Source of the DNA: Planctomycetales bacterium
Lineage (GTDB): Bacteria > 4484-113 > JAFGCY01
NCBI GenBank assembly: GCA_022646745.1
Contig: CP060262.1
Coordinates: 1,260,001-1,292,000 of the forward strand
Length of the DNA: 32,000 nt
Reading direction: 5' to 3'
The notes under the pieces are model-generated. The model ran no database searches. It was not told the origin of the DNA and was given only the letters and a program-made list of their open reading frames with translations. Both the position numbers and the translations under genes were made by a program. The first letter of the stretch is position 1. Each line of letters starts with the position of its first letter. Below are positions 2,040 to 32,000 of the stretch, one piece after another.

Positions 2040-2160
2040 GATGCCTGCCACAGCGATTGATGCGCTTGCCAATCAGATGCGAGAAGGCATTGCAGGCCGT
2101 GCGCAGGGGTATGTAGCTCCAAGAGCTACTTGGCCTTGTCGGTCATAGACCGACACACCG

Positions 2161-3597: not shown

Positions 3598-3629
3598 GGG
3601 TGAGGTTAAAGACCCGGAGTGTGCATCAG

Positions 3630-4220
3630 ATGAGATACCTTTCAGTATTGTGCCTGTTGTTGATTGCGCTTCTGGCCTCCGCCTGCCCCCAGGGAGCTGG
3701 CGACCAGGCTGGTTCGAGCGCTGCCCCTGCCGGTTCCGCATCCTCCGGTGCCGCATCCGTTGATGCCGATGATTCCAGCGCCGGGGATACGGTTTCCACT
3801 GAGAGCGATGCTGAGGCTATCGCCCGGGCGCATGGCACACCGGTAAATGGCAGTGACGATGCCGATGCGGACAAGCCTGTCAATCCCGCCGCCGTTGGCG
3901 AAGAGGCTGAAGCCGCCATGCAGGTGGTGCGCGACATGGCCAAGTACCTTGTCACGGGCGAGCGTGATTCCTTCATCGCCTGCTTCCACCCGGAATCCCC
4001 TGAACTGGAGGAGATGACCGGGATGTTTGACAGCAAGCAGGGCAGCATCACTGCCGTGCAGGTCGTCAACCTGGAGGTCAAGGAAGCAATGAAGGGCTTC
4101 GCAATGGTTGACTACGAATTCAGCATCTCGGAGAGCGGTAAGGAAGCAGAGACCGAGTCCGGCAGCATGGAGCTGCGCCAGGCCGAGGACGGCCATTGGC
4201 AGATCTACGACCTGGACTGA
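3630..4220 (+). CDS. lipoprotein, low-complexity linker plus small globular C-terminal domain (NTF2-like by guess)
   Basis: The ATG at 3630 gives MRYLSVLCLLLIALLASAC (signal peptide plus lipobox-like LASAC). An Ala/Ser/Asp-rich linker follows, then an ordered domain of about 110 aa. GGAG lies about 10 nt upstream. Confidence 0.7.
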   Translation: MRYLSVLCLLLIALLASACPQGAGDQAGSSAAPAGSASSGAASVDADDSSAGDTVSTESDAEAIARAHGTPVNGSDDADADKPVNPAAVGEEAEAAMQVVRDMAKYLVTGERDSFIACFHPESPELEEMTGMFDSKQGSITAVQVVNLEVKEAMKGFAMVDYEFSISESGKEAETESGSMELRQAEDGHWQIYDLD

Positions 4221-4259
4221 GTCCGGTCTGATCCTCAGTACTTTCCACAGGGACCAGTC

Positions 4260-5906
4260 ATGAGGTACTTACTTGCGTTGACAACGGCAATCGCCGTCTG
4301 CTGCTGTGCATCGTGTGCCGGGCGGACGGAGCTGGCTGCGGATTCCCAGCTGCCGCCCAACGCCCTGCAGGATGCCTGGCAGGACCAGCTGCCCCCGCTG
4401 CCCCCGCAGCGCTCCTCGAGTGGTACTTCCGTTTCCGAGCGTGTCGGCAGCAACTACCTCGTGAAGAGCAGCAATGCGATCGAGGATGGCAACCGGCTCG
4501 ACCTGCTGAGCGGGTCGAACAGCATGGCCTGGGCCTACTGGCAGTACACCGGCGGGCCGCGCGCCGTCACCAGCCTCGAGTTCGTGATGGACGTGCCGGC
4601 TGACAATCAATACTTTGTCGCAGTGCCTGACTACCGCAGTGGCCGCTGGCAGTTCCGCGGGCCATTCGACAGCGGCCGGATATTCCGGGCTGACAACTTC
4701 GACTTCTACTCACCTGGCGGGGACTTCTACGCGCTGGCGCTGACCGCCGGTGGCAACAAGGCCAGTGTGGCTGCCGTCAATGTGACCACGGAGGACAACT
4801 GGCAGTGCATCACCCTCCGTCCGGATGTGTCTGTCAACACGCAGCCCCTGGTGGAGATTGTGGATGGCAAACCGGTCGTGGTCTGGTATGACAAGGACAC
4901 GGATGCCTTCCGCATCCTGCGCAGCAGCACGATGTTCGGCGAGGACCCGTCGGACTGGAATGAGCAGATCTGGCTGTTCACTGGCGACAAGTTCGTGCGC
5001 TACACGGATATGGCAATCATCAACGGCAAGCCAGCCGTAACATTCAGTGATGGTGACAGCCACGACCTGAATTACTTCCGCGAGGGCATGGATGACTACA
5101 TCGTGCTCAGCGGCGACCTGAATGCATCGGGCGGCCGCAGCAGCCTGCTGGAAGTGGACGGGCACGCCGCGATCAGCTACCGAGATGGTTCCGGTGGTGA
5201 CAACAGCCAGGGCGCACTGGTATATATGCGCAGCGGCACTCCGAACGGCCTGCAGGGAGAGGACTGGGAAAGCCGCGTCACGGTCTACGGTGCCAACCAG
5301 GGCTTTGACAAACCGGACATGCAGATTGTCAGCGGCCATCCGGCGATCGCCGCATTCGACTACAGCTTCGAGAACGTGATGTACTGCTGGACCACGGACA
5401 CTGACGGTATGACAGCGGAGAACTGGAAGAACCGCACACTCTATACCAGCAATGACAACCCGGAGTTCATCAACCTGCATGTACTGGACCAGTATCCGGC
5501 AATCGCCTTCAAGGATGCCAAGAACGGTGAGGAGCTCTGGTTCCTGCAGGCTGCGGTGGCGGACCCCGGCGATGAGCTCAATGACTGGAACAGTCCCTTC
5601 GTGATTGACAGCACCGGCAACGTTGGCCAGGGCACAAGCCTGTCAAGCATCAACGGCCGGCCCTTCATCTCCTACCTGAAGGACGGAAGTGGCTCGGAAC
5701 TGCGCTATGCAATCTCCAACACGCTCAATGGCATCCAGGGCAGCTGGCAGAAAGGACTCGTCGAGGATGAGAATGTGCAGAGTTCCACGCTCTACACGAA
5801 AGCGCTGAGTATTGAAGGCCGGATGGTCATCTGCTTCCTGGAATACAACGGCAGTGACATCCGGAATATCAACTGGTGCTGGCGCGAGGCCGGCGGACTG
5901 GAGTAG
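4260..5906 (+). CDS. lipoprotein: shared N-terminal module plus seven-repeat beta-propeller-like domain
   Basis: MRYLLALTTAIAVCCCASCAG (signal/lipobox). aa 64-178 form the module shared with the 6040 and 12872 proteins (..MAWAYWQY..FVAVPDYRSGRWQF..YALALTAGG..). Seven repeats of the pattern x-G-x-P-x-I-x-[FY]-x-D-(n)-L-x-Y follow (GKPVVVWYDK, GKPAVTFSDG, GHAAISYRDG, GHPAIAAFDY, QYPAIAFKDA, GRPFISYLKD, GRMVICFLEY). Confidence 0.8.
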   Translation: MRYLLALTTAIAVCCCASCAGRTELAADSQLPPNALQDAWQDQLPPLPPQRSSSGTSVSERVGSNYLVKSSNAIEDGNRLDLLSGSNSMAWAYWQYTGGPRAVTSLEFVMDVPADNQYFVAVPDYRSGRWQFRGPFDSGRIFRADNFDFYSPGGDFYALALTAGGNKASVAAVNVTTEDNWQCITLRPDVSVNTQPLVEIVDGKPVVVWYDKDTDAFRILRSSTMFGEDPSDWNEQIWLFTGDKFVRYTDMAIINGKPAVTFSDGDSHDLNYFREGMDDYIVLSGDLNASGGRSSLLEVDGHAAISYRDGSGGDNSQGALVYMRSGTPNGLQGEDWESRVTVYGANQGFDKPDMQIVSGHPAIAAFDYSFENVMYCWTTDTDGMTAENWKNRTLYTSNDNPEFINLHVLDQYPAIAFKDAKNGEELWFLQAAVADPGDELNDWNSPFVIDSTGNVGQGTSLSSINGRPFISYLKDGSGSELRYAISNTLNGIQGSWQKGLVEDENVQSSTLYTKALSIEGRMVICFLEYNGSDIRNINWCWREAGGLE

Positions 5907-6039: not shown

Positions 6040-8100
6040 TTGTCCTATGTTCTGTTGTTCGGTCGAGTTCTGGCGACACTGGCCCTGATATGCCTGTCAT
6101 GCACTTGCGGGGATTCAGCATCTCTGCTGGCTGCGTCTGACGCGCCTCACGCAGAAAGCCTGCTGCCAGGATCAGTGGTCCTGCCTGCTCCTTCCGCCCT
6201 TGAATCAGTTGACGACGGGATTCTGGATCCGGCCGGCCGGCAGGCCAGCAATCTTGATCTGGAGTTGCTTGACGGAGCCCCCCTGATTGAAGCGAGCGGA
6301 GTTGCAAACTGGTCGGTTGGCAGCCTCAACCTTGAACCGGCAGGCGAACTGGACTTGGCATGGGCGATCTTCAGGGCATCCGGCCTGGACTCGGATGGAT
6401 CAGCGATCCCACTTTCCATCCAGCTTGAGACCGACAAGCCAGGCTGGCTTGCAATCAGCGATTATTCCCGCAATCGCTGGCGGATCATCTCCTTCAGCGG
6501 CAGTGGCGGAATACCTCTGGCGAATGGAGATGAACTGGTTTCCACGGCAGGGCATTGCCATGTTGCCGTGCTGGCATGGCAGGACGGACTGGACCTGACA
6601 TCCCTGGTACTGACCAGCAACCAGCAGCCTGCGGAGCCGTTGTTGAATGAAGGCGAGATGCTGGGCGTGAACATGGAGCGCATCGGTGACAGTGCCAGGG
6701 CATGGAGTTTTGTGGATGTGTTCAAATGTTCGCGGGCTTTTACTTCAACCACTGCCGGCGGGGCACCAGATGCACGCCCGCTTGACCTGGACGAGCATGG
6801 CTGGGTGAAGTCCCTGCAGTCCGGTCAGGCAGCGACTGCAATCTTCCTCAACTCACAGATGGGGAACTATCCTGCCGGACAGTTCATCTGCCTGTACGAG
6901 GGAAGTGGCAGCATCCTGGCGGTTGGCGATGTGAGCATTGCTTCGCAGACGCCGGGGCGCATCGTGCTGGACTATGCACCAACTGCCGGTGGTCGGGCTG
7001 CCCTGCGCGTTACCAGCACAGATCCGAAGGATTACATACGTGGGATCCATGTCGTGTTTCCCGAGTATGAAGTGGACTATGACAGCCAGATTTTCCATCC
7101 GGATTTCCTGTCAAAGTTCAGTCCATTCAAAGTGGTGCGCTTCCTGAACTGGACTCGTAGCAACAATTCTCCGCTTGTGGAATGGGAGGAGCGGGGCCAT
7201 CTGGATCACCAGACCCAGGACAGCAACTATGGCGTCGCCCCGGAATACATCTGTGCACTCTGCAACCGGCTGCAGGCAGATGCGTGGGTGAATATCCCGC
7301 ACCTCGCCAGTGATGACTATGTTGCGAGCTATGCGCAATTCCTGCGCGACAACCTTGATCCTGGGCTGCGGGTGTTCGTGGAGCACAGCAATGAATTGTG
7401 GGGCGGTTTTGCCCAGGGCGATTATGCAGAGGCACAGGGACTCGCCGCCCAGCTCAGCGATGACCCGTACACGGCACGCATCCGCTGGCACAGCCAGAGA
7501 AGCGTGCGGATATTTGAGATCTTCGAGGAGTCATTTGCCGGCAGCGCTAGGTTGGTCAGGGTGATGGGAGCAGCGCATCACGATCCATTCACTCTTACGG
7601 AGGCACTCGACTGGCAGGATGCCTGGCAGCATGTCGATGTTGTGGCGACAGCACCATACATTGGTGGACGCCTCGGTGCTCCGGCTAATGCCGAGAACAC
7701 CAAGCTGCTGGACATCGCCGGAGTGATCCAGGCGATGGATGACGACAGTGTGCTTTCCGCGGGAAAGACGCTGGCGAACAGGGCGATCTGCGATGCACAC
7801 GGAGTCGGGTATGTTGCATATGAAGGAGGACAGGCGCTGTATGGGCAGGGTGGCTATGAGAACGACCCCGTGCTGGCAGCTCTATTCATCGCCACCAACA
7901 GGGACCCGGGCATGCGGCAGCTGTATTTCGACCATCACAAGCGCTGGCATGACAATGGAGGAGGGTTGTTCATGGCCTTCACATACATCGGTCTGTACAG
8001 CGGAAGCGGATGCTGGGGCATCTTCGAGACCCAGCAGCAGGATACCCAATCCTCGTTCAAGTACCTTGGCCTGCTGGACTACGACGCAACATTGCCATGA
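6040..8100 (+). CDS. lipoprotein: shared N-terminal module plus putative clan-GH-A-like (TIM-barrel) glycoside hydrolase domain
   Basis: TTG start at 6040 (uncertain). Signal/lipobox ..LATLALICLSC. aa 70-192 form the shared module (..LAWAIFRA..WLAISDYSRNRWRI..HVAVLAWQ..). The C-terminal 450 aa contain VFVEHSNELWGG (Asn-Glu at 7390-7395, a typical acid/base strand) and YVAYEGGQ (Glu at 7822-7824, a candidate nucleophile). GH family not identified. Confidence 0.7.
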   Translation: MSYVLLFGRVLATLALICLSCTCGDSASLLAASDAPHAESLLPGSVVLPAPSALESVDDGILDPAGRQASNLDLELLDGAPLIEASGVANWSVGSLNLEPAGELDLAWAIFRASGLDSDGSAIPLSIQLETDKPGWLAISDYSRNRWRIISFSGSGGIPLANGDELVSTAGHCHVAVLAWQDGLDLTSLVLTSNQQPAEPLLNEGEMLGVNMERIGDSARAWSFVDVFKCSRAFTSTTAGGAPDARPLDLDEHGWVKSLQSGQAATAIFLNSQMGNYPAGQFICLYEGSGSILAVGDVSIASQTPGRIVLDYAPTAGGRAALRVTSTDPKDYIRGIHVVFPEYEVDYDSQIFHPDFLSKFSPFKVVRFLNWTRSNNSPLVEWEERGHLDHQTQDSNYGVAPEYICALCNRLQADAWVNIPHLASDDYVASYAQFLRDNLDPGLRVFVEHSNELWGGFAQGDYAEAQGLAAQLSDDPYTARIRWHSQRSVRIFEIFEESFAGSARLVRVMGAAHHDPFTLTEALDWQDAWQHVDVVATAPYIGGRLGAPANAENTKLLDIAGVIQAMDDDSVLSAGKTLANRAICDAHGVGYVAYEGGQALYGQGGYENDPVLAALFIATNRDPGMRQLYFDHHKRWHDNGGGLFMAFTYIGLYSGSGCWGIFETQQQDTQSSFKYLGLLDYDATLP

Positions 8101-8174
8101 GCTCTTGAATCCCCCAGTTTGACAGGCCGATTCCGCAGGGTCATAATCTGCCTGTACTGCTGAGGTGGGACACC

Positions 8175-9227
8175 ATGCACAAAGCTACATTTGGCCTGAT
8201 AGCAGCACTGCTGGTGCTGCTTGTATCCTGCAACGAGGGAAACCCCGACAGCCAGTCGGCGCAGCTGGCACAATCGACTGCGCCAACGGCTGCCGCAGAA
8301 CCGGATGCATCAGTCACACTGGCGGATTCCTCCAACTCAAAAGCTGCAGCTGGGCAGCCTGAGCACCTCGGTTACTGCGTTGAATACTGCGCTTCCTGCG
8401 GTGAACACCGTGGCGAGAACACCGCACCGCCCCGTGACGAACCGGTGCGGATCAATTTCGACTTCATGGCAGTGCACTACAACGATGCTCCGGACGCGGA
8501 CATGTCAAAGCTGGACTTCGTACTCGTCGGACAGTGGCGCAACCGTGAGCGGATGAAGACCCACCTCTCGATGGACCACCGCGAGCAGGACAACTTCCCG
8601 ATCGTGGATGTCGGGTTGTGCAAGCTGCATGTCGAGCCCATGCTGTCCGAGGTGGTGGAGACGGCGATCCGCAACCGCAGTGGCAACGATTACAAGACCT
8701 ACGGCGCCTACATGGTGACGGTCACCGACCCAGACGGTGTACTTGTGGGCGAGTTCCCGCTTGATGGCAACGGAGAAGCGGGAGAGGCACAATGGCAGAA
8801 CACGAAGGAAAGCGTCTACCACGTCGGCAAGGCCTACAAGCGTGACAGCGACGAATGGCGTTACGACATCCGCCGCATGTCAGAGTTCCGCGAGCAGGAG
8901 TATGAAGCACCTGTGCTGTTCGGGCTGGTGTTCCGCAATGAGGGCAAGCTCAGCCATTCGGATGTGGCCCCGGACCATGGCACGCATGAGTACGTATTCC
9001 CGGCCGCCGGCGTTGACATCTACACTCCCGAGGCGATCCGCGCCGCCGGGCTGGCGGCAATCGAGCGTGAGAAGGCGGAGCGTGACGTGAAGCTGACTGC
9101 GAATGCAGGGGAGCTGCCGAAGCTCGAGCCGGCATTCATCGCGCGGGGCATTGGCGATGGAAACAAGGATCCGGGCAATGGCTACAGTCCGCCGGTCTAC
9201 GGCGGTGGCTGCGGCGGTGGTGGTTGA
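8175..9227 (+). CDS. hypothetical lipoprotein
   Basis: MHKATFGLIAALLVLLVSC (lipobox LVSC). GAGGTG lies 7 nt upstream and CATAAT further upstream. Coding-type third-position bias. No recognisable domain. Gly/Cys tail ..VYGGGCGGGG. Confidence 0.75.
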   Translation: MHKATFGLIAALLVLLVSCNEGNPDSQSAQLAQSTAPTAAAEPDASVTLADSSNSKAAAGQPEHLGYCVEYCASCGEHRGENTAPPRDEPVRINFDFMAVHYNDAPDADMSKLDFVLVGQWRNRERMKTHLSMDHREQDNFPIVDVGLCKLHVEPMLSEVVETAIRNRSGNDYKTYGAYMVTVTDPDGVLVGEFPLDGNGEAGEAQWQNTKESVYHVGKAYKRDSDEWRYDIRRMSEFREQEYEAPVLFGLVFRNEGKLSHSDVAPDHGTHEYVFPAAGVDIYTPEAIRAAGLAAIEREKAERDVKLTANAGELPKLEPAFIARGIGDGNKDPGNGYSPPVYGGGCGGGG

Positions 9228-9261
9228 AACTGATCAGCCGCTCCCGTGTGGAGCAGTCCTG

Positions 9262-9864
9262 TTAATCGCCGCCGCCGATCACGAAGATCACATACAGGAT
9301 CTTGTCGAGGAACAGGCAGATCCAGCCGGCGATGTTCCATGCCGACATCGTGTCGTTGAACTGGTTGATGTCATTGAAGCGCCGGCCCTGCCAGGCCAGC
9401 TCCTTGCCCTTCTGGCCGATGTACAGCGCATAGAGTGTCGAAACGACGGGGATCCAGCAGACGATCAGTCCGACGATGCCCAGTGCCACCTGGCCATTGG
9501 CAAAAGCGAACAGCCCGAAGGGCACGCAGCCTGCGGCCGTGAAGCCCTGGGCATCCGCCGGTACTCCGGCCGCAGCTCCCATCCCACTGCTGTTTTCGCC
9601 ATAACCGCTCATGGTCTGCTGGCGGTAGTACTCCTGGGCCACTGCCGGGTCAAGGTTCTGGGCGCTGATCTGTGGTTCCTCCTGCCTCATCTCCGATGGC
9701 GAAGGGGCCACATAGCCGGGTCGCTTGCCGCTTTCCTCCGTCCAGGAACGGTACTTCGGTCCGCTGGAAGACTCGGCCTGGGCCTGGTTGCCAAGCGGCC
9801 GCATGCAGCTTGAACATGTGCTGCGGCCCGGTCCGTTACTGGCACCACAAGCAGGACACTTCAT
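9262..9864 (-). CDS. zinc-ribbon membrane protein (paralog A)
   Basis: N-terminal CxxC..CxxC ribbon (MKCPACGASNGPGRSTCSSC), a Pro/Gln/Ser-rich linker, and a C-terminal membrane domain GCVPFGLFAFANG..GKELAWQGRRFNDINQFNDTMSAWN.. that is homologous to the adjacent gene. Confidence 0.8.
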   Translation of the reverse strand: MKCPACGASNGPGRSTCSSCMRPLGNQAQAESSSGPKYRSWTEESGKRPGYVAPSPSEMRQEEPQISAQNLDPAVAQEYYRQQTMSGYGENSSGMGAAAGVPADAQGFTAAGCVPFGLFAFANGQVALGIVGLIVCWIPVVSTLYALYIGQKGKELAWQGRRFNDINQFNDTMSAWNIAGWICLFLDKILYVIFVIGGGD

Positions 9865-9897
9865 TTGCTTATCCCCCCGTCGCGGAATTAATACAGG

Positions 9898-10482
9898 CTA
9901 GAAATTACCACCGCTGCCTTCCATGCTGATGGCGAACACGATCAGGGCGACGTACAGGATGGCCCCGATCACTGACATGATGATGCTGAAGATCAGGTAG
10001 ACCTTGCCCCAGTAGTTCCAGGCATTCATGGTTTCGTTGTATTCCTGGCGGCTGTTGAAGCGCCGGTTCTGCCAGGCGAATTCATTGCCCTTGATCAGCA
10101 GGACCAGGTTGGCAAGGCTGCCGACGAAGCAGCTTGCGACCAGCACGATGATGCCCCACATCGCGGCCCCGTTGGCAAAGGCGAAGATCCCGCAGGGCAG
10201 GCAGCCACCCAAGTTCATGTTCTGGGTCTCTGGAGGCAGGGGATGACCGCTGCCCATCCCGCTGGTGTTCGGGATCTGCTCGTAGCTGCCGAAACTGGGC
10301 GGGACAGTGCCGGGTGCTATCGGGGGAGCCTGCGGCGGTGGCGGAATGCTGTGTGGCGGAGGGGCCTGGAAATGCTGTGGATCCGGCTGCGGCGACCCGG
10401 ACTGTTCTGCCAGCAGCTTGCCGCAGCTGATGCAGAACTTCGTCTGGTTGTCATTCTCCGCACCGCAGTGCCCGCAGAACAT
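9898..10482 (-). CDS. zinc-ribbon membrane protein (paralog B)
   Basis: MFCGHCGAENDNQTKFCISCG ribbon, a Pro-rich linker (PPPHSIPPPPQAPPIAPG), and a C-terminal domain GCLPCGIFAFANG..GNEFAWQNRRFNSRQEYNETMNAWN... GGAGGA lies 6 nt upstream of the ATG. Confidence 0.82.
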   Translation of the reverse strand: MFCGHCGAENDNQTKFCISCGKLLAEQSGSPQPDPQHFQAPPPHSIPPPPQAPPIAPGTVPPSFGSYEQIPNTSGMGSGHPLPPETQNMNLGGCLPCGIFAFANGAAMWGIIVLVASCFVGSLANLVLLIKGNEFAWQNRRFNSRQEYNETMNAWNYWGKVYLIFSIIMSVIGAILYVALIVFAISMEGSGGNF

Positions 10483-10537: not shown

Positions 10538-10912
10538 TCAGTGGTACTCGTTGTGCTCAAGGAAGAAGCCGTTGCCTTCGGGGTCCACGCAGTCCACTAC
10601 GCGAACCCCGGGAGCCGGGTCGCGCACCTCACTGCACACTACGCCGGCTCCGAGCAGCCTCTCGCGCGCGGCGTCGATATCGTCAACGGCAAAACCGAAG
10701 CGCGGTTGCACCTGCTTGGGCATGAGTTCAAGGCCGCCATGCAGCGCCAGCGTGCATGCGCCTGAACTGAAGCTGACCCACATTTCATTTGAGTAATCGT
10801 CCTTGCCGGCCGGCCAGGCGATCTCAAGCCCCAGCCGGTCACGGTAGAACTCCACGGCGGCTGCCATGTCGCTTACATAGACAATGATCTCAGATATGCC
10901 CTTCAATGCCAT
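10538..10912 (-). CDS. VOC (glyoxalase/bleomycin-resistance/dioxygenase) family protein
   Basis: 124 aa. The N-terminus ISEIIVYVSDMAAAVEFYRDRLGLE is typical of a VOC beta-alpha-beta-beta-beta module. AGGAG lies 7 nt upstream. Confidence 0.85.
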   Translation of the reverse strand: MALKGISEIIVYVSDMAAAVEFYRDRLGLEIAWPAGKDDYSNEMWVSFSSGACTLALHGGLELMPKQVQPRFGFAVDDIDAARERLLGAGVVCSEVRDPAPGVRVVDCVDPEGNGFFLEHNEYH

Positions 10913-10967
10913 TTCGCAATCTCCTGGTCCCGTGCCGATGCAGGCATTCTAACTCGTGCAACGCGTA

Positions 10968-12872
10968 TCAGGGATTCAGGTAGTCATCCAGCGGGTAGCT
11001 TGCAAGCCGCCAGACCTGGAACTGCCGCTTGTGGATCGGCAGGCTGGGGTTGCCTGGCGGCATCGTGTCATTCTGGATGCGCGCATTACTGGCTGTGCCA
11101 GCGTTCTTCGTCTCCGTGTAATCTCGCAGGAAGGGGCTGACACTGGTCTGGCTGTCCGGACGATGGCAACTGCTGCAGGAATTGCCGACATAGCTGGCAG
11201 CGAAGTTCTGCCAGGTGGGACCGCCCGTCTTGAGCTGGATCGTTGCGGAAACGGACACATCAATGTCCGCCAGGGGGAAGCTCCAGCTCGCACCGCCATA
11301 TGCAACCTGGCTGTTGAACAGCTTGTAATTTCCCTGGTCGGCAGCCGGGAACTCAAAGTAACCGGTATTGTCAGTGTACGTTGAATAGCTGGCTGGATTG
11401 CCATTCTGTCCCTGCAGGGTCATCAGCAGGCCCGGGATGCCATACTTCTCGCTGGCGTCCCCCGGCACGAACCAGTCCATCTGGCCGGAAACCTTGCGGG
11501 TTGGCGGCGGGGCTGTTGCTGCGAAGTCGATACCGTTCTCATTGGCACTGCCGAGGTTGACCAGGCGCACGACGGGATTGAAGGTCCACTTGCCCAGCGT
11601 GGGCTTGAGGTTGTACTGCGAGGGTGCCAGGTTGGTGAAGCTGTAGTTGCCGTTCACATCAGTGAAGGCCAGCCGGAATCCCGGGGTCAGGGTGACGGCA
11701 ACGCCCGGCACAGGGCTGCCACCATCGTTGATGTTGCCGCTGATGGCGAAGGTCGGCTGCCCGCCGCTGGCTTCGAAATCCACGCCGTCCTCATCGGCGC
11801 CGCTCACGTTGACATTCTGCGAGCTGGGCGTGAAGCTGTAGCCGGCCTGCAGCGGGTCGACGGTATAGGCACCGTCCGCCACGCCCTCGAAGCTGTATTC
11901 GCCATCCGCCCCGGACACCGTTGTCATGATTGAACCGGGATTGAGCGTGAGCGAGATGCCGGGTACGCCGACTCCCTCCGCTGTTGCCACCCGGCCGCTG
12001 ATGTCGATTCGGGTGCCCGTGAAGTCGATGTTCTCCATCGTTCCGCTGACATTAACGTTCTGCGAGGCAGGCATGTAGGCCACATTCATGCTCTGCGGCT
12101 CGAAGCTGTACATCCCCGCTGTCGGCAGTCCGATGAAGTATGTGCCGTCAACATCCGTCACCAGGGTGACGCCATCAGGGTTTGGGTTGACGAAGATGTA
12201 CTGGCTGGCCAGCGGCTCGCCGTGCTCGTCGAGGATGGTGCCGCTCACGCTGTGGTCATACATCACATCGTTGTCAAAGCGCACGGACAGGGACTTGACC
12301 GTTGCCGCGCTGCCCCCGCTGGTCAGGATGGCCACGAAGAACTGTGAGGTGCTGTTCAGGTACAGGCTCGGCGGCATGTCATAGCTGGCCGGGCCACTCG
12401 TCGGGGCCTGCCACTGCCAGCGGCCGGACTGGTAGTCACTGTATGCAATGTAGGCCACACTGCCCGGGTTGCAGGTCAGGTCCACGCTCAGTCGCTCGGG
12501 CTGGTAGCCACCGGTGTTGAAGGCGTACAGCGCCCAGGCGGTTTCCGCCGTGCTGCTGGGCAGTACGATTGCGCTGTTCGGGTACAGGCAGTTCGGGCTG
12601 GAGCTGAAGATGCCGATGCCGTTGTAGCTCACGATGTTCGTGAAGCTCAGGTTGCGGTCCGGTCCTGCCGCCGGGTCCTGCGCAGGCAGGTCTGGCAGGG
12701 TGCTTCCCGGCAGCTGCCGGAGGTCCAGCCCTTCATGAGAGGCCAGCACGGCAGGGGTGGAAAGCATCTCCGCCTGTTGCTCACCACCACAGGCGGCGAG
12801 GCATAGCAGGGAGAGGGCCAGCAGGGCATTGACCATGGCGCGCATGGCAGTCGTGTCCAGCACAGGGCTCAT
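10968..12872 (-). CDS. lipoprotein: shared N-terminal module, four CarboxypepD_reg-like Ig repeats and a C-terminal c-type haem (CXXCH) domain
   Basis: GAGGAG lies 8 nt upstream of the ATG at 12872. Lipobox LCLAAC. Shared module at aa 74-199 (..TAWALYAF..YIAYSDYQSGRWQW..FVAILTSGG..). Four repeats of about 80 aa have the form ISGxV..G.PvpGv.vtL.....t.tD.nG.Y.F..l..g.Y. CSSCH lies at 11163..11177 and is followed by ..NDTMPPGNPSLP..QVW, resembling the PSCyt1-type cytochrome c domain. Confidence 0.85.
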   Translation of the reverse strand: MSPVLDTTAMRAMVNALLALSLLCLAACGGEQQAEMLSTPAVLASHEGLDLRQLPGSTLPDLPAQDPAAGPDRNLSFTNIVSYNGIGIFSSSPNCLYPNSAIVLPSSTAETAWALYAFNTGGYQPERLSVDLTCNPGSVAYIAYSDYQSGRWQWQAPTSGPASYDMPPSLYLNSTSQFFVAILTSGGSAATVKSLSVRFDNDVMYDHSVSGTILDEHGEPLASQYIFVNPNPDGVTLVTDVDGTYFIGLPTAGMYSFEPQSMNVAYMPASQNVNVSGTMENIDFTGTRIDISGRVATAEGVGVPGISLTLNPGSIMTTVSGADGEYSFEGVADGAYTVDPLQAGYSFTPSSQNVNVSGADEDGVDFEASGGQPTFAISGNINDGGSPVPGVAVTLTPGFRLAFTDVNGNYSFTNLAPSQYNLKPTLGKWTFNPVVRLVNLGSANENGIDFAATAPPPTRKVSGQMDWFVPGDASEKYGIPGLLMTLQGQNGNPASYSTYTDNTGYFEFPAADQGNYKLFNSQVAYGGASWSFPLADIDVSVSATIQLKTGGPTWQNFAASYVGNSCSSCHRPDSQTSVSPFLRDYTETKNAGTASNARIQNDTMPPGNPSLPIHKRQFQVWRLASYPLDDYLNP

Positions 12873-26736: not shown

Positions 26737-27183
26737 CTACTGGTTGATCTCCGGTTCGACGAGCAGGGCCAGCTTCTGCAGTGACTGCTGCCAGCCGAGG
26801 TAGCAGGCCTCCAGCGGAATCACGTCCGGCACTCCCTCCTGCACGATGTGCAGTTCAGTGCCGACGCTGACCTCGCGCAGCGTGACCGTGACCTTCATCT
26901 CGCCCGGCAGGTTGGTCTCGTCGTCAAACTTGTCCGTGTACACGAGGCGCTCATTGGGGACCACCTCGATGTAGCGGCCACCGAAGGAATGGCTGTGCCC
27001 GGTGGTGAAGTTGCGAAACGACATGTGGAAGCCGCCGCCGATCCTGACATCTATGTTGTCAACGGTGCAGAGGTAGCCATATGGCGGGTTCCAGCTTGCA
27101 ACGGCATCCGCTTCAGTGAAGGCGCGGTAGAGCTTTTCGGGGCTGGTGGCGATCACGCGGTGCAGCTTGACTGTGTTTGGCAT
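26737..27183 (-). CDS. SRPBCC (Aha1-like) domain protein
   Basis: ..HRVIATSPEKLYRAFTEADAVASWNPP..GGGFHMSFRNFTTGHSHSFGGRYIEVVPNERLVYTDKFDD... AGGAG lies 6 nt upstream. Confidence 0.85.
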   Translation of the reverse strand: MPNTVKLHRVIATSPEKLYRAFTEADAVASWNPPYGYLCTVDNIDVRIGGGFHMSFRNFTTGHSHSFGGRYIEVVPNERLVYTDKFDDETNLPGEMKVTVTLREVSVGTELHIVQEGVPDVIPLEACYLGWQQSLQKLALLVEPEINQ

Positions 27184-27219
27184 CTGATACTCCTGGTTGA
27201 CTGCCGCCTCGCTGTTTGG

Positions 27220-27828
27220 TCAGCGGGGGCTGAAAAGTAGTTCAATGTAGCGGCGCAGGTGCGCAATGCTGTCCGCGGCAATCGCTGTATCGCCGGTCGC
27301 CTTGGCGAGGATGAATGCGCCCTGGATCACGGCCTGGGTATGCAGCGCCACGCTTGCGGCAGTCCAGTCAGCTCTGTTGCCAGACTGCTCAATCGCCGCC
27401 TCAATGTCCGCCTCAAGCGTGCGGGCATGTGCCGTGATGCTGCGCTCGCAGGCCGCCACGAGGTCCGGCCGGGTGAGGTAGGCCTCCTGCGTGATCATGC
27501 CAGCGAAGCAGGTGTAGTCCGGCAGCTCCCCCTGCAGCAGCTCCCGGCGGAAGTCGATGTAGGCCAGCAGGCGCTCCAGCGGGTCCTCGATGCGGTGGTA
27601 CTCCGCGGATGCGAACAGTCCGCCGGTCAGCGCATCCCAGTGCGCCACGGCGGCCAGCGCAAGCTCATCCTTGCTCTTGAAATGGTGGAAGAAGCTGCCC
27701 TTCGTCACTCCGGCTTCAGCGCAGATATCTTCGATCCGCGTGGCGGTGTAACCCTTGGCGCGCACGATCTGCAGGGTGGCATTCAGCAGCCGTGTCCGTG
27801 AATCAACTTGTTTTGCTTCGTGTTCCAT
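27220..27828 (-). CDS. TetR/AcrR-family transcriptional regulator
   Basis: RTRLLNATLQIVRAKGYTATRIEDICAEAGVTKGSFFHHFKSKDELA is the TetR HTH. The ATG at 27828 is taken as the start; the GTG at 27834 is an alternative. The start lies inside the operator palindrome. Confidence 0.88.
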   Translation of the reverse strand: MEHEAKQVDSRTRLLNATLQIVRAKGYTATRIEDICAEAGVTKGSFFHHFKSKDELALAAVAHWDALTGGLFASAEYHRIEDPLERLLAYIDFRRELLQGELPDYTCFAGMITQEAYLTRPDLVAACERSITAHARTLEADIEAAIEQSGNRADWTAASVALHTQAVIQGAFILAKATGDTAIAADSIAHLRRYIELLFSPR

Positions 27829-27866
27829 ACCCACTGGTAGGTATGATTATACCGACCAGTGGGTAT
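27827..27866. promoter_or_regulatory. 40-bp near-perfect palindrome (candidate TetR operator) with an embedded TATAAT
   Basis: ATACCCACTGGT (27827-27838) and ACCAGTGGGTAT (27855-27866) are perfect 12-bp inverted arms. An inner pair GGTAT/ATACC is also present. The centre reads TATAAT on the minus strand (27851..27846). Confidence 0.7.
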
Positions 27867-28474: not shown

Positions 28475-29452
28475 GTGAGTTACCGCCACCTGGTTTCCAT
28501 CCGCGACCTGTCCGAACCGGACCTGCACCAGCTGCTCGACCTCTCCGAATGGTTCATGCCCCAGGTCGAGGCCGGCGGCTTCAAGATGGACACCCTGCGC
28601 GGCACCTCCTGCATCCTGCTGTTCTACGAAGCCTCGACCCGCACCCGCGCATCCTTCGAGGTGGCCGGCAAGATGCTCGGCAGCGACACCATCAATGTCG
28701 GCAGCAAGGGCAGCAGCACCGAAAAGGGCGAGACCGTCAAGGACACGGCGCTGACGCTGAACGCCATGGACCACAACTGCGTGGTGATGCGCCATGAGAC
28801 CGCTGATGCGATCAACATCTTCGCGCAGTATTTCGAGCGCGGGCTGGTCAACGCCGGCAGTGGGCTTGGCCAGCACCCGACCCAGGCCCTGCTGGACGCG
28901 CTCACCCTGCGCCGCGCCGGCCTGCTGGAGAAGGGCCGCCGTGTGGCAATCGTGGGTGACCTGCGCCACAGCCGCGTGATGCGCTCCAACCTGCAGCTCT
29001 GGGCCAGCCTCGGAATGGACACCGTGCTCGTCGCCCCGCCGCAGCTGATGCCGGACGGCTGGGAAGGCCTGCACCCTGAGCACTGGGCGGATGACACAAC
29101 GGGCTACGGCAGCGTGACCTGGGACACTGACATCGACCGCGTGCTGCCTGATGTGGACGCCGTGATGATGCTGCGCATGCAGCGCGAGCGGATGGACGGC
29201 GGCTACCTGACGAACTCCGATGAGTACTCCAAGCTGTACGGCCTGTTCGGGCACCGCATGAAGAAGCTGCCGCCACACGCGATCATCATGCACCCCGGAC
29301 CTGTCAACCGCGGCGTGGAAATCAGTGAGGAAGCCTTCCTCGACCCGCGCTGCCGGATCACCGAACAGGTGACCTGGGGCGTGGCCAGCCGCTGTGCACT
29401 TCTATGCTGGAGCTGCGGCCGGCTTCCGGTGGGATTCGCCGTCACGGCCTGA
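28475..29452 (+). CDS. pyrB: aspartate carbamoyltransferase catalytic subunit
   Basis: LFYEASTRTRASFE (S-T-R-T-R carbamoyl-phosphate site), LGQHPTQALLD (H-P-T-Q), HPGPVNRGVEI. GTG start. Confidence 0.93.
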   Translation: MSYRHLVSIRDLSEPDLHQLLDLSEWFMPQVEAGGFKMDTLRGTSCILLFYEASTRTRASFEVAGKMLGSDTINVGSKGSSTEKGETVKDTALTLNAMDHNCVVMRHETADAINIFAQYFERGLVNAGSGLGQHPTQALLDALTLRRAGLLEKGRRVAIVGDLRHSRVMRSNLQLWASLGMDTVLVAPPQLMPDGWEGLHPEHWADDTTGYGSVTWDTDIDRVLPDVDAVMMLRMQRERMDGGYLTNSDEYSKLYGLFGHRMKKLPPHAIIMHPGPVNRGVEISEEAFLDPRCRITEQVTWGVASRCALLCWSCGRLPVGFAVTA

Positions 29453-29504
29453 CCCGGAAGGCAGTCTGTGCAGGATCCCGGATAACAAGGAGGCTGCTTA
29501 CAGG

Positions 29505-29705
29505 ATGTCTGCGAAACTGATGGTCATTGTTGGCATCATCGGCCTGAACCTGCTGCTTTGCATCGCCATGGTGATTTACCAGTACGCAAGCGGGGTGAGA
29601 ATCAGAAGGGGTGACATCAGCTCCCCGATCCACAACGGTTTCTATCTGCTGGTGGCTGTCTCGGTTGTGATCATCGCCCTGGTTGAATACGGGTTTCCGG
29701 ACTGA
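29505..29705 (+). CDS. small (66 aa) two-TM membrane protein, hypothetical
   Basis: AAGGAGG (29487-29493) lies upstream of the ATG at 29505. MSAKLMVIVGIIGLNLLLCIAMVIY..FYLLVAVSVVIIALVEYGF. The ORF track start (29394) overlaps the pyrB 3' end. Confidence 0.6.
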   Translation: MSAKLMVIVGIIGLNLLLCIAMVIYQYASGVRIRRGDISSPIHNGFYLLVAVSVVIIALVEYGFPD

Positions 29706-29840
29706 ACTGATCCTCAGCCTGCCCGTCGTAAACATGATCATCTTATGTATGACAAGATTATTTCCGATTCCTGACTGTAAGTTACAATCATCGGGTCCCT
29801 GTGGACCCCCTGCGGGAACCGCCCGCCTGAAGGAATGTTG

Positions 29841-30524
29841 ATGAAGAAGCTCTTGATCGTGATGCTGCTGGCACTGGCGCTGCCCTTCGCCGCCCAGGCC
29901 CAGGAAGACGAAGCCGCTGCTCCCGAGGAGACCCCGGCTGCCCCTGCCATGGCCGCCGAGTATGCCCGCCAGAGCTTTGGCAACTTCAGCCTAGAGCTTC
30001 CCACGCATGGCACCCTCAAGCGCCCCGGCGATGCCGACTGGAAGGAGGAGGAGCAGGTCGTCTTCAACTGGTTCGGTGACAAGTCCGACCCGATTGTGCT
30101 GATCCAGTGCCGCGTTGACAGCTTCGAGGATGACCTCGAGCAGAGCGCCTACGACATCTTCTGCGACACCCTGCTTTCCAACTGGCTCAACTCAGATGAC
30201 AACTACACCGTGCTTGATCCGCCGCTGCCGCGCAGTGAGGGAGAACCGCGCCGCACGCGCAGCATGCTCGGCTCGCATACCTGGAACCTGATCCAGATTG
30301 ACGACCACTCCGATGCCAACGGCGGCAAGATCTACTACTCGATCTTCTGCACCTACAGCGGCAGGGACATCTACACCATCAGCTTCTACTACCTCAATCC
30401 GATGACCAAGGAAGACACCCGCGTCAAGGATTTCGGCAAGCCGCTGCTGGAGAGCTTCCGCATCGCCGGTGAGGGCAGTGCCGTGGAGGAGGATGAGATG
30501 GCGGCTGAGGACGGCGCTGCCTAG
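29841..30524 (+). CDS. secreted hypothetical protein
   Basis: MKKLLIVMLLALALPFAAQAQ signal peptide. AAGGAA lies 5 nt upstream of the ATG at 29841; the ATG at 29835 is an alternative. No recognisable domain. Confidence 0.7.
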   Translation: MKKLLIVMLLALALPFAAQAQEDEAAAPEETPAAPAMAAEYARQSFGNFSLELPTHGTLKRPGDADWKEEEQVVFNWFGDKSDPIVLIQCRVDSFEDDLEQSAYDIFCDTLLSNWLNSDDNYTVLDPPLPRSEGEPRRTRSMLGSHTWNLIQIDDHSDANGGKIYYSIFCTYSGRDIYTISFYYLNPMTKEDTRVKDFGKPLLESFRIAGEGSAVEEDEMAAEDGAA

Positions 30525-31153
30525 CGCAGGATCGTTGCCAGCCTCATTTCAAAGTCCTCACGGGTCATCTCCGTCGTGACGTAGCCGACAACCTTGCCGT
30601 CACGGTCAAGGAAGAAGGTGGATGGGAATGCGCTCAGGCCGAGCTTTTCCTTGACATCCACGCTGTGGTACATCGGGATCTCAAACCCCTTCTCCTTCCA
30701 GAAGTCCTCGGCGGCCTTGCTGTCAACGGAGACCGCGATCATGTCGAACTCGGCCTTGCGCTCCTTGTAGACCTCATTCAGAGCGGGCAGTTCGTCCACG
30801 CAGGGCGGGCACCAGTCACCCCAGAAGTTGACAACCAGCGGCCTGCCGTAGAAGGAGCTGATACCAAGCACCTCGCCGTCCGCACGGCGCACGCTGAATT
30901 CCGGCATCGAACGCGCTGAGGAAGCACCGTCTGATTCCGATCCACCGCCGGGATTGGCCTGCTCGCCTGCTGCATTCTCTTTGGATGCGGCTGCATCCTG
31001 CTCGAGCTTGTTTTCTGTGACGTAAGCCTGGCCTTCCTGATCTTGAGCGAGGGTTTTTGCATTGCCGGCCTGTTCTTCGGCGGTCTTGTTGCAGGAAACG
31101 GCCAGCAGCAGTATCGCTGCCAGGGAAAGGATAATCAGCTGGATGGCTTTCAT
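30521..31153 (-). CDS. TlpA/ResA-like thioredoxin-fold thiol:disulfide oxidoreductase lipoprotein (Cys form)
   Basis: MKAIQLIILSLAAILLLAVSC lipobox. Active site NFWGDWCPPC. The conserved downstream block is ..AFPSTFFLDRDGKVV... The ORF track start at 31234 is replaced by the ATG at 31153. Confidence 0.85.
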   Translation of the reverse strand: MKAIQLIILSLAAILLLAVSCNKTAEEQAGNAKTLAQDQEGQAYVTENKLEQDAAASKENAAGEQANPGGGSESDGASSARSMPEFSVRRADGEVLGISSFYGRPLVVNFWGDWCPPCVDELPALNEVYKERKAEFDMIAVSVDSKAAEDFWKEKGFEIPMYHSVDVKEKLGLSAFPSTFFLDRDGKVVGYVTTEMTREDFEMRLATILR

Positions 31154-31257
31154 GGTCAGTCGTCCACTCCGGGAATTACAGGTTTCAGATGATATCAGGC
31201 GCACGGTTCTGTGCCCCTGTCCTGATTGACGCAATCGAAGGCTGACTGTTCGTCGCT

Positions 31258-31854
31258 TCAGCGCGTGATTTCCGCCAGCTTGGCTTCGAACTCCTCAGCA
31301 CTGATCTCCCCGAGGTGCTCATCCACCACTTCACCCTCGCGGTTGATGAAGAAGGTATGCGGGATGCCATGCACGCCGTACATGTCACCCCAGTCGCCAT
31401 CCAGTCCCCACGGGAAGGTGTAGCCGCTCTGCTGCATCCAGGGAACCGGTTCCTTCGCGCGGTGCGAGGCCAGGGCCAGCAGCTCGAACTCGCCGCTGTG
31501 CTGCTTGTACATCTGCTCAAACACGGGAAACTCCCGCTTGCAGGGCTCTCACCACTCGCCCCAGAAGTTCAGCACCAGTGGCGTCCCGATGAAACGGGAT
31601 GCCTCCATCGGGCTGCCATCCGGGCTCGTGTATTTCGCTGTCAGCAGCGGGCTGCTCTCTGCCACTTCCGGCACCACTGGGCTGTCGCCGGGCGAGTCCT
31701 TGATAGGCTGGCCTGCAGCAGCTGCATCGTCCGCATTGCCTTGGACCGTGGAATGAACGCCATCCGCTGAGCCGGAAGAGTCCTGTGGCTGTTTATTGCA
31801 GGAAGCCAGAAGCAGCAATGCGATGCAAGGCAGCAATAGCTGGATGCGAATCAT
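31258..31854 (-). CDS. TlpA/ResA-like thioredoxin-fold lipoprotein with in-frame UGA (putative selenocysteine, U-E-P-C active site)
   Basis: ORFs 31549..31863 and 31258..31524 are in the same frame and are separated only by TGA at 31549-31551. Read-through gives ..[42 protein letters not shown].., which is colinear with the Cys paralog. Lipobox LLLLASC after the ATG at 31854. A SECIS-like hairpin follows the UGA. Confidence 0.75.
31513..31543 (-). promoter_or_regulatory. candidate bacterial SECIS hairpin
   Basis: The mRNA reads UGAGAGCC-CUGC-AA-GCGGGA-GUU-UCCCGU-GUUUGA-GCAG. Lower stem CUGC/GCAG, upper stem (G)CGGGA/UCCCG(U), and an apical loop GUU 18-20 nt after the UGA. Confidence 0.55.
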
Positions 31855-31884
31855 GTAATGCACTGCTCCTGTCGCGATCCGGGC

Positions 31885-32000
31885 TTACTTGATGAGCTTG
31901 GCCAGCTTAGCCTCAAACTCATCGTGTCCCATCATGCCGACCTGCTGGTCAACCAGGTTGCCCTCAGCATCGATGAAGAAGGTATGCGGAATGCCGCTCA
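31885..32000 (-). CDS. 3' end of a third TlpA/ResA-like paralog (partial)
   Basis: The minus-strand frame is open from the window edge to TAA (31885-31887) and reads ..[36 protein letters not shown]. This is homologous to the C-termini of the two preceding genes. Confidence 0.7.
   Translation of the reverse strand, partial: [37 protein letters not shown]

Follow-up and report, generated by a model that had tools for sequence, protein, structure and literature searches.

An in-frame UGA, probably read as selenocysteine, at the active site of a TlpA-like lipoprotein gene in a tandem array of a Planctomycetales bacterium

Introduction

Several selenoprotein families of the TlpA- or thioredoxin-like kind, with a UxxC active site, have been listed (PMC13188914 Table 1). 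One of them, the TlpA-like (cd02966) thiol-disulfide isomerase-like UxxC selenoprotein, was first found in the Sargasso Sea metagenome (PMC1088965) and also appears in that table, which further contains 'UGC-containing TlpA', 'Prx-like thiol:disulfide oxidoreductase' and 'Thiol:disulfide interchange protein' (PMC13188914 Table 1). Here we analyze a 32,000-nucleotide stretch of DNA, called the window throughout, from Planctomycetales bacterium (assembly GCA_022646745.1, contig CP060262.1, positions 1,260,001 to 1,292,000 of the forward strand). Near its end lies a tandem array of three TlpA-like genes, copies 1 to 3, and our subject is the middle one. This gene, copy 2 (31854..31258, minus strand), very probably encodes a single ResA/TlpA-like lipoprotein in which a UGA codon at 31551..31549 would be decoded as selenocysteine (Sec, U) within a U-E-P-C active site. 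An earlier look at the DNA letters and open reading frames (ORFs), the sequence-only reading, had proposed a selenoprotein here, and each of its sequence-level predictions that we checked held.

Compared by description, copy 2 shares with the thiol-disulfide isomerase-like selenoprotein a TlpA-like thioredoxin fold, Sec as the first residue of UxxC, widespread homologs with cysteine (Cys), and a small selenocysteine insertion sequence (SECIS) directly past the UGA with a G in its apical loop. Unlike that protein, it appears to be a lipoprotein; its gene stands in a Sec-Sec-Cys array, and the uncultured lineage that carries it seems to come from saline activated sludge. With ResA (1st9, 4nmu), CcmG, DsbE and TlpA it has in common the context W-C-E-P-C-K-x-E-F-P, the cis-Pro segment and a predicted membrane-tethered, outward-facing position; it differs from them in carrying a predicted Sec in place of the nucleophilic Cys and, where they have a transmembrane helix, a predicted lipobox anchor.

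Two further comparisons concern classification. The NF041054 selenoprotein is likewise TlpA/ResA-like and has a W-A-x-x-U-G context, which copy 3 echoes with W-A-D-W-U-G-Y-C. However, the active sites of copies 2 and 3 are UxxC and not U-G-C, they score 27-40 bits against a cut-off of 300 on a model of 354 positions, and copy 2 is not a member. NF041054 (WAxxUGC) appears to correspond to the 'UGC-containing TlpA' family of the review. The Prx-like (PF00578, UxxC/UxxU) and thiol:disulfide interchange (PF13098, UxxC) selenoproteins resemble copy 2 in their AhpC-TSA and Thioredoxin_2 Pfam domains and in UxxC; these labels derive from overlapping Pfam models.

One reading frame interrupted by a single UGA

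On the minus strand, ORFs 31863..31549 and 31524..31258 lie in the same frame, and translation of 31863..31258 together with the ORF list bore out the earlier claim that TGA at 31551..31549 is their single interruption. Around the active site the codons read CCA CTG GTG CTG AAC TTC TGG GGC GAG TGG TGA GAG CCC TGC AAG CGG GAG TTT CCC GTG TTT GAG. The features of the gene that carry the argument are as follows.

31258..31854, minus strand: copy 2, putative complete selenoprotein gene of 198 residues, with signal peptide and lipobox, tether, thioredoxin domain and U-E-P-C active site
31549..31551, minus strand: in-frame UGA, candidate Sec codon, at the nucleophilic first Cys of CxxC and opposite the TGC of the Cys paralogs
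31540..31542, minus strand: TGC, resolving Cys of UxxC, in a column invariant across all paralogs and orthologs

Translation likely starts at ATG 31854 rather than GTG 31863, because independent gene calls give a 101-residue product from that ATG and AGGAG lies 11 nt upstream of it. The gene span of 31258-31863 given by the sequence-only reading is thus correct in frame and probably wrong in its start. The terminal stop is TGA 31260..31258, preceded by the residues ITR. W-TGA-EPC of copy 2 aligns with W-TGC-PPC or W-TGC-GPC of the paralogs and with CEPC of ResA. The proposed match of NFWGEW-UGA-EPC to NFWGDW-C-PPC of the paralog at 30521..31153 was confirmed column for column, and in the paralog alignment similarity continues past the UGA to the end, as had also been claimed. 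The partial third copy (31885..32000) aligns with copy 2 too.

Gene callers were expected to split such a gene, as they routinely do with selenoproteins of this class. GenBank indeed holds copy 2 as two products of 101 and 88 residues, each named 'hypothetical protein' (MCB1220800/MCB1220801 and UNM09448/UNM09449, the latter H7A35_05170/H7A35_05175). A full-length query with Cys substituted for the UGA found only 3 distant proteins among 5.8 billion and no correctly joined version. Because the records list two halves, and no close full-length entry turned up, copy 2 is without selenoprotein annotation in the records examined.

We give practically no weight to the idea that the TGA is a sequencing or assembly error for TGC or TGT, or that this genome has reassigned UGA to sense throughout. 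The source is a metagenome-assembled genome (MAG), which speaks for an error, but the NCBI MAG contig (JAGRNS010000015.1 of GCA_020440665.1, where the window occupies 52063..84062), the closed 4.11-Mb MAG (whose proteins UNM09427-UNM09449 map to this locus) and independent assemblies of several samples in ENA and Logan all show the identical TGA, as do six independent metagenome contigs (L001-L006; L numbers denote the loci that we fetched) and the sister genome L210. The assembly error that had been raised at the outset is excluded by this identity across independent assemblies. As for reassignment, TGA ends 8 of the 21 long ORFs in the window with high GC content at third codon positions, including mutS and pyrB, and it ends copy 2 too; UGA is therefore a normal stop here and there is no global reassignment. 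Long table-11 ORFs are also intact, among them that of the 852-residue MutS.

The only other TGA-interrupted coding frames in the window are adjacent genes that chance to share a frame. Two of these, long frames with high GC at third codon positions joined by one TGA, were considered as recoding candidates and rejected on that ground, 26741..27834 (minus strand, TGA 27222) and 3600..5906 (plus strand, TGA 4218); adjacent same-frame genes of this sort include a TetR gene followed by AHSA1.

The UGA and the codons beyond it are conserved

Scanning GTDB with each species represented by one genome gave no close match to the window organism. The five best loci, L007-L011 (33-41% identity), are TlpA-like tandem arrays with one TGA copy each, at the catalytic column, together with one or two Cys copies. 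Genes of the form NFWAxW-TGA-xxC occur in these loci, in the metagenome contigs L118 and L149 and in the relatives L215 and L216, and have 95-97 intact codons after the UGA (96-97 in L007-L011); in seven of these loci (L007-L011, L215 and L216) Cys paralogs adjoin the Sec gene. The Cys/Sec alternation that the sequence-only reading had suggested looking for among orthologs was found, in paralogs and orthologs alike, at exactly the catalytic column.

Scanning metagenome contigs for the pattern NFW[GA]xW-TGA-xxC yielded at least 120 stretches, with 121 matches listed. In about 100 of the listed matches the downstream frame is intact, either over some 95-120 codons ending in a TlpA-like C-terminus or over a longer distance in fusion genes, and about 10 look like chance. 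All fetched loci taken together hold at least 99 distinct TGA genes in which 80 or more codons follow the TGA; this pattern scan supplied most of these genes.

The metagenome set also contains forms of a different build. In L094, L104, L111, L117, L119, L133, L142, L143, L146, L148, L165 and others, NFWASW-TGA-xxCREELPRLQKL is preceded by 590-700 open codons upstream of the UGA, which points to large proteins of several domains, the Sec-TlpA domain being C-terminal. L093 has two NFWATW-TGA-TYC genes, one of which (2104..2133) has 24 codons past the TGA and the other 116; the short one may be a decayed duplicate.

Codon differences from the sister genome L210 show how the sequence past the UGA changes. 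Copy 3 differs by 7 synonymous and 0 nonsynonymous codons, all past the UGA. Past its own UGA, which is kept, copy 2 differs by 4 synonymous and 3 conservative nonsynonymous codons with 0 insertions or deletions, a pattern comparable to that of the Cys paralog (5 synonymous, 6 nonsynonymous). Synonymous change predominates past the UGA, and the sequence there evolves as coding sequence. For the neighboring paralog, the UGA persists in seven further genomes or contigs.

These data bear on whether copy 2 is a pseudogene, that is, a TlpA paralog inactivated when its active-site codon mutated to a stop, with the downstream part now decaying. The split of the gene into two hypothetical proteins by GenBank and gene callers would fit such a history, as would the position of copy 2 as a long-branch, lineage-specific paralog and its ratio of nonsynonymous to synonymous change, which exceeds that of copy 3. 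Yet that nonsense codon recurs at this column: a second gene of the tandem array has it, as do nine more loci in the lineage and about 100 of the listed metagenome genes. The 96 downstream codons run without a frameshift or second stop both here and in the sister genome; and the 4 synonymous and 3 conservative changes past the UGA resemble those of the intact Cys paralog. We consider a pseudogene highly improbable. The degraded downstream sequence by which the sequence-only reading proposed to recognize one is excluded by the intact frame, the conserved UGA and the coding type of change.

A hairpin resembling a bacterial SECIS follows the UGA

Immediately downstream of the UGA the transcript can fold into a small hairpin, whose full sequence in copy 2 is CUGC-AA-GCGGGA-GUU-UCCCGU-GUUUGA-GCAG.

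31513..31543, minus strand: SECIS-like stem-loop, with lower stem CUGC/GCAG, upper stem GCGGGA/UCCCGU (31537..31532 with 31528..31523) and loop GUU (31531..31529)

The hairpin begins 5 nt, and its GUU loop 17 nt, past the UGA. A hairpin at 31513..31543 had been described in the sequence-only reading and does exist there; the spacing given for it, 6 nt, should read 5 nt, and the loop, placed at about 20 nt, lies at 17 nt.

In the published model of the bacterial SECIS (bSECIS), the apical loop has 3-9 nt with a G among its first two nucleotides, typically N-G-[G/U]-N-N with the flanking N's paired (PMC13188914 Fig. 2). The model further sets an upper stem of 4-16 bp, a distance of 16-37 nt from UGA to loop and a minimum free energy (MFE) of at most -7.5 kcal/mol (PMC13188914 Fig. 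2). We applied these limits in our own implementation, not with bSECISearch. Copy 2 falls within all four, with a 3-nt loop that starts G-U, 6 bp in the upper stem, a spacing of 17 nt and -11.2 kcal/mol, so that the SECIS test suggested earlier for the UGA region came out in favor of the element. Over a 43-nt region the MFE is -12.7 kcal/mol (z -1.78 against dinucleotide shuffles), whereas the equivalent region of the Cys paralog forms no stable structure (z +0.73).

The element recurs, placed over identical codons, in every close Sec ortholog, where it takes the form C[A/G]GG-AGUU[U/A/G]-CC[U/C]G; the hairpin of copy 3 reads UCAGG-AGUUA-CCUGA, and that of L011 GCGG-AGUUU-CCGC. RNAalifold on 7 sequences predicted a three-part helix that extends from the A of the UGA to position +40 and includes 6 pairs with compensatory change. 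Among 9 Sec sequences, tested against a structure derived from those same sequences, 82% of cells are paired compared with 28-50% when the partners are slid; there are 7 compensatory pairs, and the observed value was reached by 0 of 500 shuffles for four of five measures and by 1 of 500 for the fifth. Imposed on nine Cys paralogs of the same loci, this structure is 33% paired with positive energies, as against 81% in the Sec copies.

The contrast between Sec and Cys genes extends to larger samples. Within the NFWxxW context, 79% of 99 distinct Sec forms lie inside the bSECIS limits, compared with 21% of 77 Cys forms. A covariance model, R1, gave at least 49 bits for the Sec copies (49 for copy 2), all of which are R1 training sequences, and at most 21.7 bits across 1.4 Mb of Cys-type loci, about 80 in number. 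For about 35 Sec genes outside the training set it gave 24-34 bits, exactly at their UGAs, and it had no further match across the window.

The copy 2 hairpin fits the published bacterial SECIS model, covaries and is without a counterpart in the Cys paralogs. A conserved, covarying hairpin at exactly the place expected of a SECIS also argues against the pseudogene. In the mechanism that we propose, the hairpin at 31543..31513, with its GUU loop, would act as a bacterial SECIS and recruit SelB-GTP-Sec-tRNA(Sec) to the ribosome, and translation would then run for 96 codons past the UGA to the real stop at TGA 31260..31258.

Selenocysteine machinery and the identity of the inserted residue

Several observations weigh against decoding of this UGA as Sec. 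We found no selA, selB, selD or tRNA-Sec gene in the window, in 10 kb upstream or 7 kb downstream of it, or in related loci. The hairpin of copy 2 is small and only moderately more stable than shuffled sequences (z -1.78 over 43 nt), its 81-nt context is not unusually stable (z +0.32), and the need to encode the conserved peptide E-[FL]-P fixes part of its sequence. The copy 3 hairpin alone has -6.7 kcal/mol, just short of the -7.5 kcal/mol limit. No Rfam family matched at its gathering score, and a permissive scan of 31440..31620 gave noise only. Finally, copy 2 has an ortholog in only one close relative (L210), so that the ratio of nonsynonymous to synonymous change is drawn from 7 codon differences.

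The search for the machinery went as follows. With ARAGORN, neither the window nor 8 loci yielded a tRNA or tRNA-Sec, and a further run gave no tRNA-Sec in 210 sequences. Escherichia coli SelA, SelB and SelD sequences, used as tblastn queries on the fetched loci, matched only in L150 (SelA and SelB), a match that confirms the SelA and SelB queries as workable. When the SelA of L150 was searched against the database, none of the best 120 of 8000 matches came from the closed 4,112,261-bp genome.

L150 is a Planctomycetota-like metagenome contig with selB at about 8136..10406 and selA at 10540..11997. Directly beside selB-selA, and divergent from them, lies a TlpA-domain gene that contains a UGA and has its N-terminal part at 7500..8363 (minus strand); this pairing lends indirect support to Sec decoding. 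Among the best 120 of 8000 matches, the nearest relatives of the L150 SelA are proteins labeled as coming from Phycisphaerales and Planctomycetota MAGs.

The UGA might instead be recoded to another residue, either by a SelB- and SECIS-dependent 'selC-like tRNA-Cys' or by near-cognate read-through that inserts Trp or Cys. The former, a tRNA that resembles tRNA(Sec) but carries Cys, has been described in some bacteria. Under recoding of this sort the UGA/Cys alignment and the SECIS would look identical, nothing in our data identifies the inserted residue, and no tRNA-Sec, SelA or SelD was found for this genome, where the window and its flanks and the best 120 of 8000 SelA matches were covered. 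Such systems are, however, rare relative to canonical Sec decoding, and Trp at the catalytic CxxC would inactivate the enzyme, at odds with purifying selection. The homologous UGA gene of L150 stands beside selA, which encodes the enzyme that makes Sec-tRNA, and UxxC proteins of the TlpA-like kind are listed among selenoproteins (PMC13188914 Table 1; PMC1088965). Taken together we regard insertion of another residue as very unlikely and Sec as the much better reading. The data themselves give the frame, the homology, the kept UGA, the coding-type constraint past it and the covarying hairpin; Sec rather than another residue we infer, and likewise the SelB mechanism and the localization, substrate and electron donor discussed below.

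Predicted protein and its function

Domain and homolog searches used the 198-residue product with Cys in place of the UGA. In Pfam, AhpC-TSA (53 bits, 4e-14) and Redoxin (48.5 bits, 1e-12) matched above their gathering scores over residues 69-187, across the UGA; Thioredoxin_8 was likewise above its gathering score across the UGA, and Thioredoxin_2 was also among the Pfam matches. The best relatives of solved structure are ResA of Bacillus anthracis and B. subtilis (4nmu, E 8e-18 over 122 residues, and 1st9, E 2e-17). The NCBIfam matches, like those in Pfam and the Protein Data Bank, extend through the UGA. The B. subtilis ResA motif NFWGTWCEPCKKEFP (WCEPCKKEFP context) aligns onto the active site of copy 2 with CEPC opposite UEPC, and the cis-Pro segment GIPHTFFI of copy 2 stands opposite LPTSFLI / LPTTFLI of ResA.

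The N-terminus predicts export and lipid attachment.

31798..31854, minus strand: predicted signal peptide ending in a lipobox, MIRIQLLLPCIALLLLAS-C, whose presumably lipidated Cys is encoded at 31800..31798

The lipobox pattern considered was [LVI][ASTVI][GAS]-C. Read by eye, residues 14-19 of copy 2 are LLLAS-C, and an equivalent lipobox motif, L-x-[GAS]-C, stands in every paralog and ortholog. Between lipobox and thioredoxin domain lies a low-complexity tether of about 55 residues, rich in Ser, Gly, Asp and Pro, and the same build recurs in all paralogs and orthologs.

Copy 2 scores below the NCBIfam equivalog cut-offs for ResA (76.8 against 170), StoA (64 against 210), DsbE (45 against 123) and TlpA (44 against 230). 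For NF041054 (ResA-like WAxxUGC), whose cut-off is 300 bits, copy 2 reaches 26.6 and copy 3 reaches 40, their motif being UxxC and not U-G-C. The locus and its flanks hold no cytochrome c maturation gene and no CcdA/DsbD gene near the array. Because the equivalog scores are far under the cut-offs and cytochrome c maturation genes are absent nearby, we take the product of copy 2 to be a probable lipid-anchored, TlpA-like extracytoplasmic thiol-disulfide reductase and not ResA, DsbE, TlpA or StoA proper. The mature protein would be tethered to the membrane through its N-terminal lipid and would reduce disulfides of periplasmic clients. The selenolate of Sec, at position 102, would be the attacking nucleophile, Cys105 (precursor numbering) would resolve the selenenylsulfide, and re-reduction would presumably come from a membrane electron carrier of the CcdA/DsbD type.

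A changing tandem array with a conserved neighbor

The neighbors of copy 2 include its two paralogs and a convergent gene for a secreted protein.

30521..31153, minus strand: copy 1, downstream tandem paralog, with Cys (WCPPC); annotated as TlpA family protein disulfide reductase; nothing like the SECIS hairpin at the corresponding place
31885..32000, minus strand, cut by the window edge: copy 3, C-terminal end of the upstream tandem paralog, whose active site W-UGA-G-Y-C lies outside the window
29835..30524, plus strand: p229, predicted secreted protein of 229 residues, convergent to the array; signal peptide, three Cys, no Pfam match

Copy 3 is whole in L001 (4002..4538, UGA at 4242; contigs L001-L006 are identical) and reads NFWADW-TGA-GYC. 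The partial third copy noticed in the sequence-only reading is thus a homolog, as was said, and more than merely another homolog, as it also carries TGA at the same column. Head to tail and all on the minus strand, the array starts with the two Sec copies (3, then 2) and ends with the Cys copy (1); the gaps measure 27 and 104 nt, and the three copies are presumably co-transcribed.

The copies differ in their relationships. Copy 3 (U-G-Y-C) forms an ortholog group with genes of L007, L008, L010 and L149 (66-71% identity), which L215 and L216 join by the motif of the active site, the sequence of the SECIS and the place in the array. Copy 1 falls in with the 'CysB' genes at 67-76% identity. Copy 2 is a long-branch paralog whose best match is 47% identical and which occurs only in this species and its sister. 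Because its SECIS equals that of copy 3 in position and structure, copy 2 appears to have arisen by duplication of a Sec gene and not by an independent change from Cys to Sec. In L011, whose adjacent copies have active-site codons at 10082 (Sec) and 10599 (Cys), the two are 70% identical over the domain, far above other Sec/Cys pairs; this identity suggests a recent duplication with a Cys/Sec switch.

Across 28475..31854 of the window, pyrB is 95-97% identical to its counterparts in L007 and L010, while the neighboring TlpA copies are only 69-76% identical (copy 3, 69-71%). Array composition varies as well, being Sec-Sec-Cys here and Cys-Sec-Cys in L007 and L010, and this genome has two Sec copies where its relatives have one. 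The array appears to be a local hot spot, changing much faster than its surroundings.

The gene for p229 keeps company with the array. Its homologs adjoin the arrays of L007-L011, L215 and L216, that is, in every lineage examined, with 80-85% identity in L007, L008 and L010 and 37-42% in L009 and L011, and only 9 homologs were found among 5.8 billion proteins. From synteny alone, p229 may be a client or partner of the TlpA array. TetR and DinB genes lie upstream of the array here and in L007, L010, L210, L215 and L216.

A wider reading of the locus, which we offer tentatively and think rather doubtful, is that it forms a fast-evolving, lineage-specific extracytoplasmic selenium redox module, in which Sec- and Cys-containing TlpA-like lipoproteins would have been repeatedly duplicated and interconverted and p229 would be a dedicated client or partner.

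Discussion

TlpA-like UxxC selenoproteins have been catalogued since 2005, and copy 2 would add an unannotated member to them, with no new mechanism or family. The Sec-Sec-Cys tandem arrangement and the conserved p229 neighbor are modest local novelties. In the public records, the two adjacent hypothetical proteins of copy 2 should be merged as one probable selenoprotein, and the upstream pair that represents copy 3 likewise. The finding would mean that selenium is put to use in the cell envelope of an uncultured lineage from activated sludge. The array sets Sec and Cys versions of what is probably one enzyme side by side, and both copy number and Sec/Cys state vary among relatives close enough to share 95-97% identity in pyrB; the locus may therefore offer a compact natural system in which to ask why Sec is used over Cys in thiol-disulfide reductases.

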